From the NCBI GenBank assembly GCA_963703505.1, contig CAVPEL010000006.1, positions 147,336 to 211,335 of the forward strand: 64,000 nucleotides of DNA, read 5' to 3'. Both the position numbers and the translations under genes were made by a program. Origin of the DNA: an uncultured Actinomycetota bacterium. Lineage in GTDB: Bacteria; Actinomycetota; Actinomycetes; CAVPEL01. This document shows, piece by piece, positions 7,509-14,034 of this stretch (positions within the stretch are counted from its first letter, which is position 1; every line of letters starts with the position of its first letter). The notes beneath the pieces were generated by a model. That model ran no database searches and was not told where the DNA came from. It worked only from the letters and a program-made list of their open reading frames with translations.

Positions 7509-9005
7509 TTGCGCACCCTCGTCATCGGCGCGGGCGAAGCCGGTCGCTCCCTGGCGCGCGACCTGCGTCACAGCCGGGGTTTCGGCCTGCGCCCGATCGG
7601 ATTCCTCGACGACGACCGACGCAAGCGGCTCGGCCGACCGCCGGGCGGTCTGAGCCTGCGGGTGCTCGGACCGATCTCCTCGCTGGAGGCGACGGCGAAG
7701 CGCGAGCGCGCCGAGGCCGCCGTGGTCGCCATCCCGTCGCTGTCGAGCCGGCGGGTGCGGGAGATCGGCGAGGCAGCGACTCGCCGCCGGGCTGTCGGTG
7801 CGCTACCTCCCGACGTTTCTCGCGGCGCTCGAACGTGACGCGCGCGCAGGTGACCTGCGCGGCCTTCAGCTTCCCGCCCTGCTCGGGCGCGAGGAGCTGC
7901 ACGTGCTCCGACCTGCCGCACGCTGCCTCATCCACGGCCGTCGAGTGCTGGTCACGGGCGCCGGCGGGTCGATCGGCAGCGAGCTGTGCCGTCAGGTCCG
8001 CGGCTTCTCACCGGCCGCCCTGTTCATGCTCGACCACGACGAGTCGAACCTGCACGGACTTCAGCTGGAGCTGGACGGCAACGGCCTGCTCGACAGCAGC
8101 GACATCATCATCGCCGACGTCCGCGACCGCTCCCGGATCGACGACGTCTTCTCGTCGCTGCACCCCGACGTGGTCTTGCACGCGGCAGCGCACAAGCACC
8201 TTCCGCTGCTCGAACAGCACCCGTGCGAGGGCGTGAAGACCAACGTGTTCGGCACCCACAACCTGATCGACGCCGCGCTCCGCCATGGGGTCGAGCGGTT
8301 CCTGCTCATCTCCACCGACAAGGCTGCCGACCCGACTTCGGTTCTCGGTGCCACGAAGCGGCTGGCCGAGATGCTGGTCCAGAGCAGCGCGCTGGACCGA
8401 GCAGCGCGTCAGCACCACCTCGCTCGGATCGGTTCGATTCGGCAACGTGCTGGGCAGCCGCGGCTCGTTCCTGTCCGTCATCCGCGAGCAGGTCGCGCGC
8501 GGAGAGCCCGGTGACCGTCACCGATCCCGAGGTGACCCGCTTCTTCATGACCGTCGAGGAGGCGGTCGGCCTCGTCCTGGAGGCCGCGACCATGGCCGAG
8601 TTCGGTGAGACCTTCGTGCTGGACATGGGCGATCCAGTCCGGATCGTCGACCTGGTCCACAACTACGCCGAGATGCTGCACCTCGGCGACGTCGAGATCG
8701 CGTTCAGCGGGCTTCGCCCCGGCGAGAAGCTCACCGAGTCGGTCTTCGCGCCAGGGAGAGGAACGGACGCCAACGGCGCATCCGAAGATCTGGGCAACCG
8801 CGCCGAGCGAGCTGCCAGTGGATTTCGGGGCCAACCTCGACCAGCTCTACGCCGCGGCCGACCGCAACGACTCCCGAGCCGTCTCCGAGGCGCTGCGCCT
8901 GATCCTGCCCGGGTACCTACCGTCCCGGGCGACCGATGGCACCGGCTCGCTGCCCGAGGGCGCGCACTCGACCCTCTGGCGGCGCCGTACCCGGACGGCT
9001 TCTGA
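7509..9005 (+). pseudogene. CapD/WbpM/PglF-like NDP-sugar 4,6-dehydratase, about 5 frame breaks
   Basis: Fragments in order: LVIGAGEAGRSLARDL...GFLDDD.. | VLVTGAGGSIGSELCRQV...LHAAAHKHLPLLEQHPCEGVKTNVFGT..LISTDKAADPTSVLGATKRLAE | VRFGNVLGSRGSFLSV | VTVTDPEVTRFFMTVEEAVGLVLEA...FVLDMGDPVRIVDL...SGLRPGEKL. Breaks at ~7790, ~8400, ~8505, ~8755 and ~8975. Stop TGA 9003-9005 overlaps the next ATG. Confidence 0.8.
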
Positions 9006-9974
9006 TGATGGCGCTGGAGACCGCCGGCGAGCACCTCGTGGTCGACTGCGAGCTGCGGCGCCTCGCGTCGCTCCTCGCCGAAGGGGCGGCCGGCGAGCTG
9101 CCGCCATGCCGACAACGGGGACACCTCGTTTCGTCTCGTCGTCGAGCAATGTCGCGACGCCTTCAACCTCCGCGGGCTCTCCCCGCTCACCCGGGACGCC
9201 TGGAGCAACGGGCAACGCATCGTCATCGTCAACGTCTGCTCATCCGGGCTGGACATGCTGGTCGAGACCGACGGAACCTGGCTGGAGGTGTACGTGCGCC
9301 AGCGCCCGCCGCTGACCGTGCAAGCCGCCGAGGTCCTGCTGCGCTCCCGGTTCCACCTGCTGATGCGCGAGCTGCTGCTGCAGTATCCGGTCCTGTGGTG
9401 GGCAGGCGTGCATGGCCGCGTCCCGCTGCACGCCTCGACCTGGGCGCGGAAGGGCCACGTCACCCTGCTGGCCGGGCCGAGCGGCGTGGGCAAGTCCACC
9501 CTTCTCGAGCTGGAGCTCACCAGCGGTGGGACCGCCACCTCCGACAACGTGTGCGTGAGCGACGGGCGTCTGGTCTACGGACTTGTGGAGCCCATGCGCA
9601 CCGAGTCGGCGAATGGACGCCGGATGCCGCACGGGCGGCGGGAATCACCGATGCCCGGCCGGGTGCCGTGCCTGGAACCCGACCGGGTGGTCGTGCTCCG
9701 CCGAGGTGCGGAGCCGCTGCCCGAGGTACGGCTGCTGCCGTGGGAGCGGGCGGCCCGCGCGCTCACCGCCGGTACCTACATGGCGGGCGAGCTGCGCCGC
9801 TACTGGGGATTTGCCGCCACTCTCGCGCTTGGCTCCGGGCTGGGCGAGGCTCACCCCCCGGTCGAGGCGGCCGCCCGGGCGCTGGCCCGGCGGCTGCCGT
9901 GCATCGAGGTGAGTCTCGGCACCAACCGGCTGACCCCGCTCCTGTCCGAGCTGCTGGCGAACGCCCGCGTGTAA
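9005..9974 (+). pseudogene. HprK-related (PEPCK-like P-loop) kinase-domain protein, one frame break ~9100
   Basis: N-terminal part MMALETAGEHLVVDCELRRLASLL... joins ...ADNGDTSFRLVVEQCRDAFNL... and ORF 9255..9974. Signature VPLHASTWARKGHVTLLAGPSGVGKSTLLELELTSGGTATSDN (LHA...GxSGxGKS as in HPr-kinase-like serine kinases). Confidence 0.45.
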
Positions 9975-9989
9975 CCAAGGGGAGGCCCG

Positions 9990-12593: not shown

Positions 12594-12617
12594 CGGCGGC
12601 GGAGACCCGGGCCCGGG

Positions 12618-13013
12618 ATGCTGTCCGGCGACCAACCCTGGCGGCACGTGATGCCCACCGACGCGGTCGTCGTCGGGGTAGGCGAAGCCTGGCGCCTCGC
12701 AGCCGTACCGAGCGGCACACCGGTCGCCCTGCTCGACGCTCGGCCTGGGGGACGCCGTCGATGTCGCCACGCGGCACGGGCCGCCGGGATCCAGATCGAC
12801 CGCGAATACGTCGTCGTTCCCTCGCTGAGCCGCCCACTGTTTCTCGCGGAGGACGACCGCTCGGCCCTGCGGTGGCTCATCAACACGCAGCTCACCGCAC
12901 CGCCGGGCTGGCCGTCGGCGGCCGGCCTTGCGCTGCGGGCGGCCGTGCTTGTGCCGTCACGGCTGATCGGTGCCGTCGTCCCCGGCCGCGTCGTGGTCGG
13001 GAGACAGCGATGA
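12618..13013 (+). CDS. hypothetical protein (start may be GTG 12590 with an early frame break)
   Basis: 131-aa ORF with no recognisable motif. Its stop overlaps the next ATG (ATGA 13010-13013). GTG 12590 overlaps the RtcB-like stop (GTGA) but is in another frame. Confidence 0.35.
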   Translation: MLSGDQPWRHVMPTDAVVVGVGEAWRLAAVPSGTPVALLDARPGGRRRCRHAARAAGIQIDREYVVVPSLSRPLFLAEDDRSALRWLINTQLTAPPGWPSAAGLALRAAVLVPSRLIGAVVPGRVVVGRQR

Positions 13014-14034
13014 CCCCACGCTCACTGCTGTCCGCCAGCCCTTCCGCTCGACGACCGATGCGGCAGCTGCTCGAGACGGACGCCCACACCATCGTGGTTC
13101 TGACGACGTCGAAGGACCCCGACGGCAAGGTCACCGTCCTGCTCCTTCCCCGCGCCGGTGACCACCGGGCCTTCGTGGTGAAGGTGCCGTCGACCGATGG
13201 CGGCCAGGTGGCAGTGGAGCGTGAGATCCGCCTGCTCGAGGAGCTAGCGGCCCGTCCCCTCACGGTCGGGGCGACCATCCCGCGGCTCCAGGAGGTCGTT
13301 GACATCCGCGGGCGCCCGGGCTTCGTGACGGAGCTGCTGCCAGGTCGAGTCGATGGCCATCCGCTACCACGCGTGGCGGCACACCGCCCGCCCGAACGCG
13401 GTTGCCGCCGACTTCGCGATAGCGCAGCGTTGGCTCGCCCAGCTTCAGTCCGTACCCACGGGCCCACCGCAGCCCGTGACCTTGCTGACCGAGCTGGTGT
13501 CCCTGCTGGTGGAGCGCTGGCCGGAGGTGCGGCCAGAGTCCGGAGCTGGCGCGACAGCTCGACGCTGCGGCCGAGCGCTTGGCGGCGTGCCGCACGCCGC
13601 GCACCGTGGTGCACGGGGACTTCTGGTTCGGGAATCTGCTCCTGTCCGGCCAGGCGGTGAGCGGGGTCGTCGACTGGGAGTGCGGCACTGTCGCCGGTGA
13701 GCCGCTGCGCGACGTAGCGCGGTTCGCGCTGTCCTATGCGCTCTACCTCGACCGGCACACGCGGCGTGGACGCCGGGTGGCCGGCCACCCGGCGCTGCGC
13801 GCCGAGCGCTGGGGTGACGGTCTGCGGTACGCGTTGACCGGGCGGGGATGGTTCCCCGACCTGATGCGAGAGTTTCTGCGCCGCAACCTCAGCAGGCTCG
13901 GTGCAGCACCAGAGCTCTGGTTCGACCTGGCGGTCGCCGGCGTGGCCGAGGTGGCCGTCACGGCGAACCATCCCGAGTTCGCGGCGGCGCACCTGCGGCT
14001 GCTGCGCGACGTGATCGGCCGGAGCGGACGGTGA
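13010..14034 (+). pseudogene. aminoglycoside/choline-kinase-fold phosphotransferase (APH family), about 2 frame breaks
   Basis: N-lobe ...HRAFVVKVPSTDGGQVAVEREIRLLEELA... Catalytic region VVHGDFWFGNLLLSGQAVSGVVDWE (the HGDxxxxN ... DWE motifs of the APH/ChoK fold). Breaks at ~13345 and ~13545. Confidence 0.65.

Follow-up and report, generated by a model that had tools for sequence, protein, structure and literature searches.

The window analysed here, a 64,000-nucleotide stretch of DNA from an uncultured actinobacterium, contains a Wzx/Wzy-type gene cluster of about 18 kb that has an RtcB-like gene as one of its members. Its genes lie on the forward strand unless stated otherwise. At the upstream edge, a LuxR-type response regulator (4252-4746) was placed by tblastn with its Dactylosporangium fulvum (D. 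fulvum) orthologue (48% identity), and the ORF at 4072-5772 matches Pfam Response_reg and GerE. A Wzz-like polysaccharide co-polymerase, or chain-length determinant, follows (4930-6255); it has frame breaks and was recovered as tblastn pieces in two frames, and both the D. fulvum orthologue and the window ORF give weak Wzz, CpsC and EpsF matches. Next come a DegT/PglE-type sugar aminotransferase (6287-7440; four frame breaks), whose five tblastn pieces lie in three frames and are 53-93% identical to D. fulvum DegT and whose orthologues match Pfam DegT_DnrJ_EryC1, and a PglF/CapD-type NDP-sugar 4,6-dehydratase (7506-9005; at least four frame breaks), identified from tblastn pieces and Pfam matches of its orthologues (Polysacc_synt_2) and ending in the same APYPDGF (8982-9002) as the D. 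fulvum protein.

A TGATG overlap (9003-9007) couples the dehydratase with a P-loop kinase of the PEPCK/HprK superfamily (9005-9974; ScmC-like), which is split by one frame break (~9050 to 9126): its N-terminus, MALETAGEHLVVDC (9008-9049), lies in one frame and the remainder (9126-9920) in another, with LHAS...GPSGVGKST at 9426-9500. The first-pass annotation of this DNA had called the kinase HprK-related, which is borne out both by the family profile, matching HprK/P 1jb1 (E 4e-4) as well as PEPCK, and by an AF2 model (pLDDT 93.9) for which Foldseek places ATP-PEPCK at the top (E ~4e-8) and HprK/P next (2e-4). There are weak ScmC and HprK_rel_A matches in the family, and the window product carries a precomputed PF27840 ScmC assignment. 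Like HPr kinase/phosphorylase and ATP-PEPCK, the kinase has a P-loop with LHxS before it and a DN/DD motif after it, but it scores under the Pfam gathering thresholds for Hpr_kinase_C and PEPCK_ATP and, at 322-340 aa, has an N-terminal beta domain of its own. The known substrates of PEPCK/HprK-type kinases are small carboxylates or enolates and protein or peptide serines; such kinases are not known to act on sugars.

The sole Leloir-type glycosyltransferase of the cluster, a GT4 enzyme located by tblastn (9990-11163; one frame break near 10790), is present as two pieces matching Pfam Glyco_trans_4_4 and Glycos_transf_1. An ATGA (11160-11163) couples it with the RtcB-like gene (11160-12593), as had been described; the second coupling claimed for that gene, through GTGA at 12590-12593, does not stand. 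The GTG and the 131-aa ORF downstream of it (12618-13013) are out of frame with each other; the ORF starts at ATG 12618 and its homologues align in that frame, so that a 24-nt spacer lies between the two genes without overlap. This 131-aa protein has no Pfam or NCBIfam match and is fast-evolving, a word search yielding only two homologues; its family HMM matches the N-terminus of a Streptomyces APH protein (a fusion, E 7e-10) and the APH N-lobe region, which suggests that it probably serves the APH kinase as an accessory subunit or N-lobe-like domain. The APH/choline-kinase-fold gene itself (13010-14034; two frame breaks), joined to it by an ATGA (13010-13013), scores 38.2 bits against Pfam APH as a window piece and 65.5 bits as the D. 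fulvum orthologue, and has HGDFWFGNLL at 13612-13641 and VVDWE at 13666-13680.

Downstream lie a Wzy_C-family polymerase or ligase (14096-15344; one frame break; tblastn, Pfam Wzy_C 54 bits) and a Wzx-type MOP flippase (15137-16603; Pfam Polysacc_synt and Polysacc_synt_3, tblastn 15311-16543), the start of which is uncertain and probably near 15290-15341. Pfam and tblastn thus find the RtcB neighbours, from the P-loop kinase through GT4, the 131-aa ORF and APH to Wzy_C and Wzx, as first described. A conserved protein (16768-17682; tblastn 50% identity) has no Pfam, NCBIfam or PADLOC match, and its gene is present in 44 of 54 loci; since its 341-aa D. fulvum orthologue has a hydrophobic N-terminus, it may be exported. 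It is followed by a small PglC-type phosphoglycosyl transferase (17685-18329, start approximate; tblastn 17817-18317, 64% identity; Pfam Bac_transf on orthologues) and, on the reverse strand, by a metallo-beta-lactamase/SCP2 (Rv3818-like)/Rieske fusion (18328-19887; tblastn pieces, two frame breaks), the domains of which were assigned by Pfam on the D. fulvum orthologue. A histidine kinase (20025-20816) and a LuxR-type response regulator (20813-21487) form the downstream edge (20025-21487; Pfam HATPase_c, Response_reg and GerE), and the loci of D. fulvum and Jatrophihabitans have this pair too.

An RtcB-family protein with an altered active site

The 11160-12593 gene encodes a full-length RtcB-family protein, confirming its initial assignment. 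Three +1 frame breaks, at ~11446 (GGGCCCCGAG), 12005-12009 (GCCCGGGCG) and 12112-12116 (GCGCCCAGG), divide its reading frame into four pieces. These jointly span residues 1-476 of the intact homologue P0001 (84% identical) at 81-92% identity and without internal stops. The frame-corrected protein (479 aa) scores 134.8 bits against Pfam RtcB, where the cut-off is 27, with positions 6-424 of the 426 in the profile aligned, and matches RtcB in the PDB by sequence (E 1e-25), and RtcB provides the only significant PDB structure matches of the AF2 model of P0001 (TM 0.64-0.74). Its scores are, however, far below the NCBIfam RtcB equivalog cut-offs, and it is 18-22% identical to solved RtcB structures.

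All of the motifs first quoted for the gene were located: LPDFHHK (11301-11321), TSASVNCGM (11385-11411), GPSNHFVELQ (11719-11748), LQYHGGGG (11815-11838), VHRHNACRAF (12210-12239), corresponding to the (H/T)RKGA of RtcB, and SACHGSGT (12366-12389). To these we add VDSPHNSIYEE (12153-12185), which holds the third metal-binding His (Pho His329/Eco His281). The claim that the residues defining RtcB chemistry are present was right for the nucleophilic His and the ligands of metal M1, but six positions that do not vary among the sampled canonical RtcBs (roughly 57) are replaced. The family retains Eco D48, H50, C78, N167, H168, E171, H185, H281, N282, R298 and H337, and it shares with P. horikoshii, E. 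coli and human RTCB the Pfam family, the fold, the nucleophile, the M1 Cys and two His, the Asn-His of GxxNHF and the guanine-reading Glu. By contrast, R189 (Pho R238), invariant in the canonical set, is Gly; K407 (the C-terminal Lys, Pho K480) is N, T or H; the M2 ligand D75 (Pho Asp95, the metal-binding Asp preceding the Cys) is Ser, in the window protein as well; the K299-G300 of HRKGA is H-N; R341, the Arg of HGAGR, is T or S; and R345 is variable. The model also has low-confidence, family-specific segments past the YHGGGG motif.

In canonical enzymes R189 holds the 5'-OH strand by its first two phosphodiesters, and the R189A mutation makes sealing 200-fold slower; Pho K480 reads guanine O6, and the M2 site is where the beta and gamma phosphates of GTP are bound (PMC9745838, PMC8051266). 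In the alignment, positions specific to RNA and GTP have been swapped for a new family-invariant set, and the Asp-to-Ser change at M2 could mean weaker or altered NTP use.

Recurrence in glycan loci

A relative of the RtcB-like gene was found in 183 species genomes, and gene content was counted in the 54 loci whose flanks were complete. In 53 of these 54 the RtcB-like gene is accompanied by the P-loop kinase, GT4 and APH kinase (53 for each gene), and the cassette proposed from the window thus recurs next to wzx/wzy; DegT and the dehydratase are each present in 52 and Wzy in 50. Such consistency argues that the gene's placement is not chance. There are at least three gene orders. The P-loop kinase, GT4 and RtcB-like genes are nearly always adjacent, start/stop overlaps join the cluster genes, and no other protein of the set is as well conserved as the RtcB-like one (median identity 68%). 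Canonical RtcB loci served as the negative control: 59 of them (603 kb) contained no such kinase, APH, Wzy or Wzx gene. The RtcB-like enzyme is thus a fixed, highly conserved component of the cluster in about 180 actinobacterial species; conserved synteny of this kind shows functional coupling, while the substrate is not given by it. Our literature search turned up no paper that connects RtcB with glycan assembly, in agreement with the first-pass annotation.

Most loci have a Wzz-like co-polymerase and some have LCP genes, and a Streptomyces variant adds a formyltransferase and a PIG-L deacetylase. The four Pfam-annotated clusters lack sugar-1-phosphate nucleotidylyltransferases as well as transferases of the CDP-alcohol or teichoic-acid type, and the annotated loci have no RtcA, RtcR, archease or PrfH-type neighbour. 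Distant relatives (30-40% identity) likewise lie within glycan loci: five of them (L088-L091 and L107) adjoin the same PEPCK/HprK-type kinase family, and another five (L097, L105, L110, L129 and L170) are directly upstream of a CDP-alcohol-phosphotransferase-like gene. A radical SAM/SPASM gene is present at L089. The notion of a two-kinase cassette holds in that both kinases recur, but the partner that stays constant through evolution is the PEPCK/HprK-type kinase and not the APH kinase that Pfam confirms downstream.

Possible functions of the RtcB-like enzyme

Cluster membership in 183 genomes, together with the conservation described above, suggests that the RtcB fold was recruited from RNA repair to glycan phosphate chemistry. 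We give roughly even odds (about 0.5) to the protein being a cytoplasmic enzyme of the RtcB fold that is not an RNA ligase but is dedicated to a Wzx/Wzy glycopolymer pathway, where it would carry out NTP-dependent activation of a phosphomonoester to yield a phosphodiester or an NDP-linked donor. The repeat unit would probably be primed on undecaprenyl phosphate by the PglC-like transferase, with a first sugar of the 4-amino-4,6-dideoxy-HexNAc type supplied by the PglF-like dehydratase and DegT aminotransferase; the one GT4, which may use just a common NDP-sugar, would extend it before flipping, polymerisation and, in some genomes, LCP wall-anchoring. The RtcB-like enzyme would load an NMP, probably GMP, onto the retained His of SACHGSG, using the retained M1 site (Cys of SVNCGM, His of YHGGGG and His of DSPHN), and pass it to a phosphomonoester to form an NDP-type pyrophosphate intermediate. 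That phosphate would come from the co-conserved PEPCK/HprK-type kinase, acting on a sugar or alcohol that belongs to the repeat unit or to its precursor, the APH kinase being a possible additional source in the actinobacterial cluster. In a third and least certain step, a hydroxyl would oust the NMP, so that the repeat unit would carry a phosphodiester linkage or a substituent attached through one; in more distant relatives, an adjacent CDP-alcohol-phosphotransferase-like membrane protein appears to do this. The logic would be that of 'kinase plus ligase' (heal and seal), acting on glycans and not RNA. The chemistry proposed earlier, in which a His-NMP enzyme joins a kinase-made phosphate to a hydroxyl in teichoic-acid-like phosphodiesters, is compatible with the evidence, and stopping at NDP-X is about as well supported.

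It is possible, if unlikely, that only the first two steps occur (NTP + X-phosphate -> X-PP-N + PPi) and that the protein is an unconventional nucleotidylyltransferase: a kinase would make a sugar-1-phosphate, which the RtcB-like enzyme would convert into an NDP-sugar for use by the adjacent GT4 in sugar transfer, with no phosphate required in the final polymer. The APH family includes anomeric sugar kinases that feed nucleotidylyltransferases, as in NahK and AmgK-MurU. Consistent with such a role are the near-constant adjacency of kinase, GT4 and RtcB-like genes, the missing sugar-1-phosphate nucleotidylyltransferase in the four annotated clusters, the pairing of relatives with CDP-alcohol-phosphotransferase-like genes, users of N-PP-X donors, and the fact that RtcB is known to produce stable pyrophosphate caps (PMC10630183). 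The loss of the sealing-specific Arg189 also fits, but would be equally expected with any non-polynucleotide nucleophile. Moreover, two kinases exceed the needs of one NDP-sugar, the constant partner belongs to a type without known sugar-1-kinase activity, and ordinary nucleotidylyltransferases are cheap and ubiquitous, leaving the use of an RtcB route without explanation.

We consider phosphoglycosylation, in which the kinases would phosphorylate Ser/Thr of a protein or peptide and the RtcB-like enzyme would join that phosphate to a sugar hydroxyl, or the reverse, to be improbable. HprK-type kinases do target protein and peptide serines, the weak ScmC and HprK_rel_A matches point to peptide-modification cassettes, as might the radical SAM/SPASM gene at the single distant locus L089, and the Wzy_C family includes O-oligosaccharyltransferases. 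However, the kinase model is nearer PEPCK than HprK/P, the D. fulvum cluster is tightly packed, with no obvious precursor-peptide space on inspection, and the Wzz-like co-polymerase of most loci and LCP of some favour a polymer over a protein glycan.

Ordinary nucleic-acid repair, by RNA or DNA end joining or capping from a gene kept in the operon perhaps for co-regulation, is very improbable: family membership is clear, nucleophile and M1 site are intact, and RtcB paralogues with varied nucleic-acid activities exist (PMC10630183), but the glycan-gene linkage is kept through three gene orders and in relatives as distant as 30-40% identity, RtcA, RtcR, archease and PrfH-type neighbours are absent from the annotated loci, none of the 59 canonical loci shares the gene set, the strand-binding Arg189 and five other invariant positions are replaced, and scores fall far short of the equivalog cut-offs. 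That the gene and its entire cluster are decaying into pseudogenes in this genome, as ~18 frame breaks over ~15 kb might imply, is scarcely credible given that breaks of this kind also hit purA, fba and a class A PBP gene in other parts of the window, GC3 frame drift spans the entire window, and the RtcB-like breaks all fall at short C/G runs between stop-free pieces of high identity. The breaks in the RtcB-like gene are thus probably assembly or sequencing errors, activity in this organism depending on their being so, and the dead gene first raised as a danger finds little support.

Relation to known systems

The cluster resembles Wzx/Wzy pathways primed with 4-amino-4,6-dideoxy-HexNAc, which include Campylobacter/Neisseria pgl, AATGal-containing pneumococcal teichoic acid and zwitterionic polysaccharides, in having a PglF-like dehydratase, a DegT/PglE-like aminotransferase, a small PglC-like transferase, one GT4, a MOP flippase and a Wzy_C protein. 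Its core set differs from pgl-type pathways in lacking a PglD-type acetyltransferase and in having two kinases and an RtcB-like enzyme without counterpart there. As in NahK-GlmU and AmgK-MurU, an APH-fold kinase would precede an enzyme converting X-phosphate and NTP to NDP-X, but the second enzyme of those pairs is a Rossmann-like nucleotidylyltransferase with no covalent intermediate, whereas here it has the RtcB fold.

Phosphodiesters of teichoic acids and phosphocholine or phosphoglycerol decorations are made by a cytidylyltransferase and a CDP-alcohol, LicD or TagF-type transferase. The proposed net outcome, a phosphodiester-linked unit formed via N-PP-X, would be similar, and the pairing of distant RtcB-like genes with CDP-alcohol-phosphotransferase-like genes strengthens the likeness; the annotated actinobacterial clusters, however, have no cytidylyltransferase, LicD, TagF or CDP-OH transferase, and activation would use a covalent His-NMP enzyme of another fold. 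A precedent for the proposed half-reaction, from His-NMP to a phosphomonoester, is capping by RtcB itself, in which NMP is placed on a phosphate as a stable pyrophosphate cap (DNA3'pp5'G in E. coli, a 5'-phosphate for M. xanthus RtcB3; PMC10630183). The acceptors there are nucleic-acid ends, whereas here we infer a phosphorylated sugar or alcohol; if this is correct, the RtcB fold would have moved from RNA repair into phosphate chemistry on glycans.

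Identity and reading frame of the RtcB-like gene

The RtcB-like gene lies at 11160-12593 on the forward strand of a window with a G+C content of about 71%, and as assembled it encodes one protein spread over three reading frames, each of which carries a part. Mapping by tblastn with P0001, an intact 476-aa homologue that is 84% identical, resolved it into four forward-strand pieces (11160-11447, 11446-12009, 12005-12112 and 12114-12590), which together span residues 1-476 of P0001 at 81-92% identity with no internal stops. Every junction between these pieces is a +1 shift beside a short run of C or G. 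The frame-corrected 479-aa protein scores 134.8 bits against the Pfam RtcB profile (PF01139; cut-off 27) over profile positions 6-424 of 426, and sequence comparison with RtcBs of solved structure gives E ~1e-25. When the AlphaFold (AF2) model of P0001 (pLDDT 82, pTM 0.86) was compared with the PDB, all 16 significant matches were RtcB, with TM values of 0.64-0.74. The profile search and this fold match confirm the RtcB-family gene proposed in the first-pass annotation, whose quoted motifs are all found where it had placed them. One of its finer readings had to be given up: the GTGA at 12590 is not a start/stop overlap, as its frame differs from that of the homologue-supported 131-aa ORF. A reading of VHRHNA as the metal-binding His motif was also rejected, the metal-binding His being in DSPHN. 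Scores against the NCBIfam RtcB equivalogs fall far under their cut-offs (PRK09588, 65.7 vs 407; release_rtcB, 41.9 vs 271.8), which on sequence grounds makes the protein a member of the RtcB superfamily that fails several features of the RNA-ligase class.

The frame breaks need careful interpretation, given the earlier caveat that, if real, they would mean a dead gene. Using intact cluster proteins from Dactylosporangium fulvum as tblastn queries against the window, we found three breaks in the RtcB-like gene, four in the DegT gene, at least four in the dehydratase gene, two each in the APH and MBL-Rieske genes, and one each in the P-loop kinase, GT4 and Wzy genes. Interruptions are also seen in housekeeping genes at 2300-4102, 23092-24288 and 40653-44286: the class II fructose-bisphosphate aldolase is split into two overlapping ORFs (profile positions 3-125 and 124-276), the adenylosuccinate synthetase (purA) ORF covers just 52-286 of 416 profile positions, and the class A PBP gene is divided over two ORFs. 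Because purA, fba and the PBP gene show the same type of break, those in the RtcB-like gene are most likely assembly errors; we therefore reject a dead gene as the most likely reading, and with the GC3 frame plot drifting between same-strand frames window-wide, the caveat is unlikely to apply. The assembly looks indel-rich, in the manner of uncorrected long reads. Elsewhere in the window, the stretch at 26001-28000 has a G+C content of 0.645, compared with ~0.71 overall, with no clear coding-frame signal and no Rfam or tRNA match, and searches of the whole window found no Rfam families or tRNAs. A promoter/terminator scan was uninformative, returning 1 terminator-like site against 4.3 expected.

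Active site and partner proteins

We aligned the core family, that is, the actinobacterial RtcB-like proteins of the cluster, with RtcB from E. coli (Eco) and P. horikoshii (Pho) and with a canonical sample of about 57 metagenome RtcBs, taking residue roles from the literature (PMC9745838, PMC8051266). Eleven positions that are invariant in the canonical sample are kept in the core family (Eco D48, H50, C78, N167, H168, E171, H185, H281, N282, R298 and H337), and a second group of seven that is likewise invariant in the canonical enzymes (D75, R189, K299, G300, R341, R345 and K407) is replaced, by a set that is itself largely invariant. The histidine nucleophile (Pho His404, Eco His337) is the His of SACHGSG (12366-12389) and is invariant in the family, as are all three M1 metal ligands of RtcB, Cys98, His234 and His329 (Eco C78, H185 and H281; PMC9745838). 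C78 bridges the two metals, and the retained E171 reads guanine N1/N2 (PMC9745838, PMC8051266).

Several of the replaced positions have described roles. Eco D75 (Pho Asp95), an M2 ligand (PMC9745838) that also contacts the beta/gamma phosphates, is Asp in every sampled canonical RtcB that covers the position; it is an invariant Ser in the core family (in TSASVNCGM) and S, A or G in the wider clade of more distant relatives. Conservation of the metal and His ligands in a proper alignment, on which the first-pass reading depended, thus holds for the nucleophile and the M1 site and fails at M2. Eco R189 (Pho R238), which holds the first two phosphodiesters of the 5'-OH strand and whose change to Ala slows sealing 200-fold (PMC8051266), is Gly in the core family (YHGGGG). 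The K299-G300 pair has become His-Asn (HRHN in place of RKG), R341 is Thr or Ser (HGxGT/S in place of HGAGR) and R345 is variable. Eco K407 (Pho K480), which reads guanine O6, is Asn, Thr or His. With respect to the guanine contacts Glu206 and Lys480 (PMC9745838), Glu206 is kept as the E of NHFVELQ; Lys480 survives in most distant relatives but not in the core family. Family and fold, the kept nucleophile and M1 site, and the replacement of positions that contact nucleic acid and GTP are, in our view, established.

Two kinases accompany the enzyme. For the P-loop kinase, no Pfam profile scored above its cut-off, matches to Hpr_kinase_C and PEPCK_ATP all falling below theirs (5 and 4 of 14 members respectively, best E ~6e-4), and a precomputed ScmC (PF27840) match is found on some members, including the window's own product. 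A profile of the family aligned with L. casei HprK/P (1jb1) over 62 residues (E 4e-4) and matched PEPCK too, and Foldseek with a confident model (pLDDT 93.9) returned ATP-PEPCK as the nearest fold (E ~4e-8, TMq 0.44-0.51) and HprK/P next (E 2e-4). An H, GxxGxGK and DN are invariant in the family, and the original label of an HprK-related kinase is right at the superfamily level. Membership of the second kinase in the APH/choline-kinase fold, also part of that annotation, is clear from its Pfam scores (PF01636; 38.2 bits on the window piece and 65.5 bits for D. fulvum, cut-off 23.2) and from its catalytic motifs HGDFWFGNLL and VVDWE. The 131-aa protein encoded beside it evolves fast, with two homologues eligible for alignment. 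In Streptomyces sp. NBC_01478 (locus L169:13603-14883) the APH protein carries at its N-terminus, as a fusion, the C-terminal half of this small 131-139-aa family, and the small-protein HMM finds the APH N-lobe region as well; the 131-aa protein is probably an accessory part or domain of the APH kinase.

The glycan cluster and its recurrence

The RtcB-like gene belongs to a co-directional block at about 4.2-18.3 kb of the window, whose genes encode, in order, a LuxR-type response regulator, a Wzz-like co-polymerase, a DegT aminotransferase, a PglF-like 4,6-dehydratase, the P-loop kinase, GT4, the RtcB-like enzyme, the 131-aa protein, the APH kinase, Wzy_C, Wzx, a protein of unknown family (341 aa in D. 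fulvum) and a PglC-like phosphoglycosyl transferase. An initiating phosphoglycosyl transferase (Bac_transf), a MOP flippase (Polysacc_synt) and Wzy_C thus sit together in one locus; matches of the chain-length regulator (PCP/Wzz) to Wzz, CpsC and EpsF were weak and below cut-offs. The D. fulvum orthologue of the protein of unknown family (16768-17682) has a hydrophobic N-terminus. Searches against Pfam, NCBIfam and PADLOC returned nothing for this protein, whose gene occurs in 44 of 54 loci; in locus L087 a relative follows the RtcB-like gene. Past the cluster lie an opposite-strand gene for a metallo-beta-lactamase/SCP2 (Rv3818-like)/Rieske fusion protein (18328-19887, minus strand; at the cluster end in 34/54 loci), a histidine kinase and response regulator pair, and a right-handed beta-helix (Pel9A/NosD-like) protein (21495-22514, minus strand). 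The beta-helix protein also flanks the cluster in D. fulvum and Jatrophihabitans (L001:1495-2829, L003:20614-21416), and may be a depolymerase for the cluster polymer. Further away, outside the cluster, 40653-60000 holds envelope and housekeeping genes, those for the class A PBP, GT87, an MFS transporter, a CCA/poly(A) polymerase-type nucleotidyltransferase, DUF6049, MurJ, a Ser/Thr kinase and an ECF-type sigma factor.

A homologue search returned 1590 matches, the best 120 of which are all 64-84% identical and 443-486 aa long, and the first three contexts (D. fulvum, a Jatrophihabitans MAG and an ENA contig) hold the same cluster. A scan of one genome per species across 185,579 species placed relatives in 183 species, and nearly all of the 80 loci kept from it are from Actinomycetota; carriers include Dactylosporangium, Terrabacter, Terracoccus, Intrasporangium, Humibacillus, Pedococcus, Kribbella, Nonomuraea, Marmoricola, Jatrophihabitans, Kineosporiaceae, Streptosporangiaceae and Nocardioidaceae. 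Intact clusters are found in cultured Dactylosporangium fulvum, Terrabacter, Intrasporangium, Kribbella and Streptomyces sp. NBC_01478; uninterrupted orthologues include those of D. fulvum NRRL B-16292 (CP073720, about 3.30 Mb) and Terrabacter sp. Root85. In the 54 loci whose 10-kb flanks are complete, the P-loop kinase, GT4 and APH genes each occur in 53, DegT and the dehydratase in 52, Wzy in 50 and Wzx in 45, so that the kinase-GT4-RtcB-kinase cassette first noticed here does recur beside wzx/wzy in other genomes. The negative control, 59 canonical RtcB loci totalling 603 kb of metagenome sequence, lacked such a kinase as well as APH, Wzy and Wzx. The genes occur in at least three orders (RtcB after GT4; RtcB after the dehydratase; PGT-DegT-GT4-kinase-RtcB), and the linkage has therefore been kept by selection rather than by inertia. 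The RtcB-like protein is the most conserved of the set, with a median identity of 68% to D. fulvum compared with 31-58% for the others. Its linkage to the kinase and to glycan assembly genes is both tight and ancient. A Streptomyces variant of the cluster adds a formyltransferase, a PIG-L deacetylase, an LCP ligase and a DegT-dehydratase fusion, and the D. fulvum locus has an LCP gene at its end, which together point to a wall-linked polymer with a 4-amino sugar.

When 1.84 billion cluster representatives were searched exhaustively, the core family formed a single 50%-identity cluster, below which full-length relatives grade from 47% to 25% identity (146 representatives with E <1e-30). Most of these wider relatives have PDxHxK, a residue other than Asp at 75, Gly at 189 and HRHN. 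These relatives too lie in glycan loci: the 38%-identity relative P0132 is encoded between DegT and a ScmC-like kinase; L089 reads GT1-kinase-methyltransferase-RtcB-MOP flippase; the kinase adjoins RtcB in L090, L091 and L107, with GT4 genes in the first two; and L105 and L170 are loci with multiple GT4 genes and Wzy_C, L105 also having a Wzx gene. In five loci (L097, L105, L110, L129 and L170) the RtcB-like gene is directly followed by one for a membrane protein of the CDP-alcohol-phosphotransferase family, with the motif DxxDGxxAR-x8-G-x3-D-x3-H. From these distant contexts, two associations outlast the actinobacterial cluster, namely that of the RtcB-like protein with the PEPCK/HprK-type kinase and that with the CDP-alcohol-phosphotransferase-like enzyme. 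The latter pair sits in low-GC polysaccharide loci (L097:12527-14769, L105:10016-13413, L110:5638-7675, L129:356-2019, L170:8001-10373), and its recurrence suggests that one protein hands an NDP-alcohol intermediate to the other. L097 has a second RtcB-like copy (12527-13942) with Pro in place of the histidine nucleophile, among other changes, and judged from these residues it is possibly a non-catalytic paralogue. In L089 (5725-9994) the kinase-methyltransferase-RtcB-flippase block has genes downstream of it for a DXP-synthase-like transketolase, an FMN-dependent dehydrogenase and a radical SAM/SPASM protein, so that the kinase and RtcB pair stands here in a biosynthetic setting unlike the actinobacterial one.

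Predicted chemistry and relation to known RtcB enzymes

We favour, at a probability of about 0.5, a reading in which the enzyme takes part in activating a phosphate and the product ends up with a phosphodiester. The RtcB-like enzyme would still form a His-NMP adduct and would pass the NMP to a phosphomonoester made by a partner kinase, giving an NDP-type pyrophosphate intermediate. There is precedent in the RtcB family for a pyrophosphate-linked end product, in E. coli DNA3'pp5'G and M. xanthus RtcB3 (PMC10630183). A hydroxyl may then displace the NMP at the RtcB-like enzyme itself to leave a phosphodiester, as the first-pass annotation had imagined, or the NDP-activated product may be used by another transferase, which in the distant loci could be the CDP-alcohol-phosphotransferase-like protein and in the actinobacterial cluster possibly GT4. 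Either route would fill a real gap, because the four Pfam-annotated clusters lack both a conventional nucleotidylyltransferase and any CDP-alcohol or teichoic-acid transferase; CDP-glycerol/CDP-ribitol synthesis genes, TagF, TarL and LicD are also absent from them. A broader and more tentative proposal is that the whole RtcB-fold clade, core family and 25-47% relatives in other bacteria alike, acts on glycans rather than nucleic acids. With the PEPCK/HprK-type kinase it would install phosphodiester-linked units in surface polymers by phosphorylating, NMP-activating and joining, with no need for a CDP-alcohol donor, to give teichoic-acid-like or zwitterionic polymers, and this would be the first substrate of the RtcB fold that is not a nucleic acid.

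The enzyme might instead supply NDP-sugar to GT4, a role that we think doubtful. A protein- or peptide-directed variant of the chemistry is less probable again, and inspection of gene coordinates in the D. fulvum cluster left no obvious room for a precursor-peptide gene. A defence system was rejected, as PADLOC models gave no match for the RtcB-like protein, the kinase, the APH protein, the small protein or the 341-aa protein. Canonical action on nucleic acids, to which the kept nucleophile and M1 site would be suited, is very improbable with the strand- and GTP-contact positions replaced and no rtcA/rtcR, archease or prfH among the Pfam-annotated neighbours in four clusters.

If the proposed chemistry is correct, the substrate range of the RtcB fold would take in carbohydrates, and bacterial envelope polymers would have a new route to phosphate bridges or to new activated donors. 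The ScmC-like kinase, the 341-aa protein and the small partner of the APH kinase, three families with no known function, would then each gain a role. The accepted view of RtcB is that of an enzyme that joins and caps nucleic-acid ends. The solved structures and papers that our literature search found all concern RNA or DNA, with no paper on RtcB in glycan, polysaccharide or natural-product biosynthesis, and the accessible part of a 2026 paper on Actinoplanes EPS does not mention it. Against this background, some 180 species carry a tight, strongly conserved RtcB subfamily that is genetically locked to a surface-glycan pathway, its catalytic core intact and its nucleic-acid-binding positions rewritten. 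Compared with known RtcB enzymes, the fold and catalytic core are familiar, the conserved biological setting is new, the substrate site has been rewritten and the function is a predicted one.
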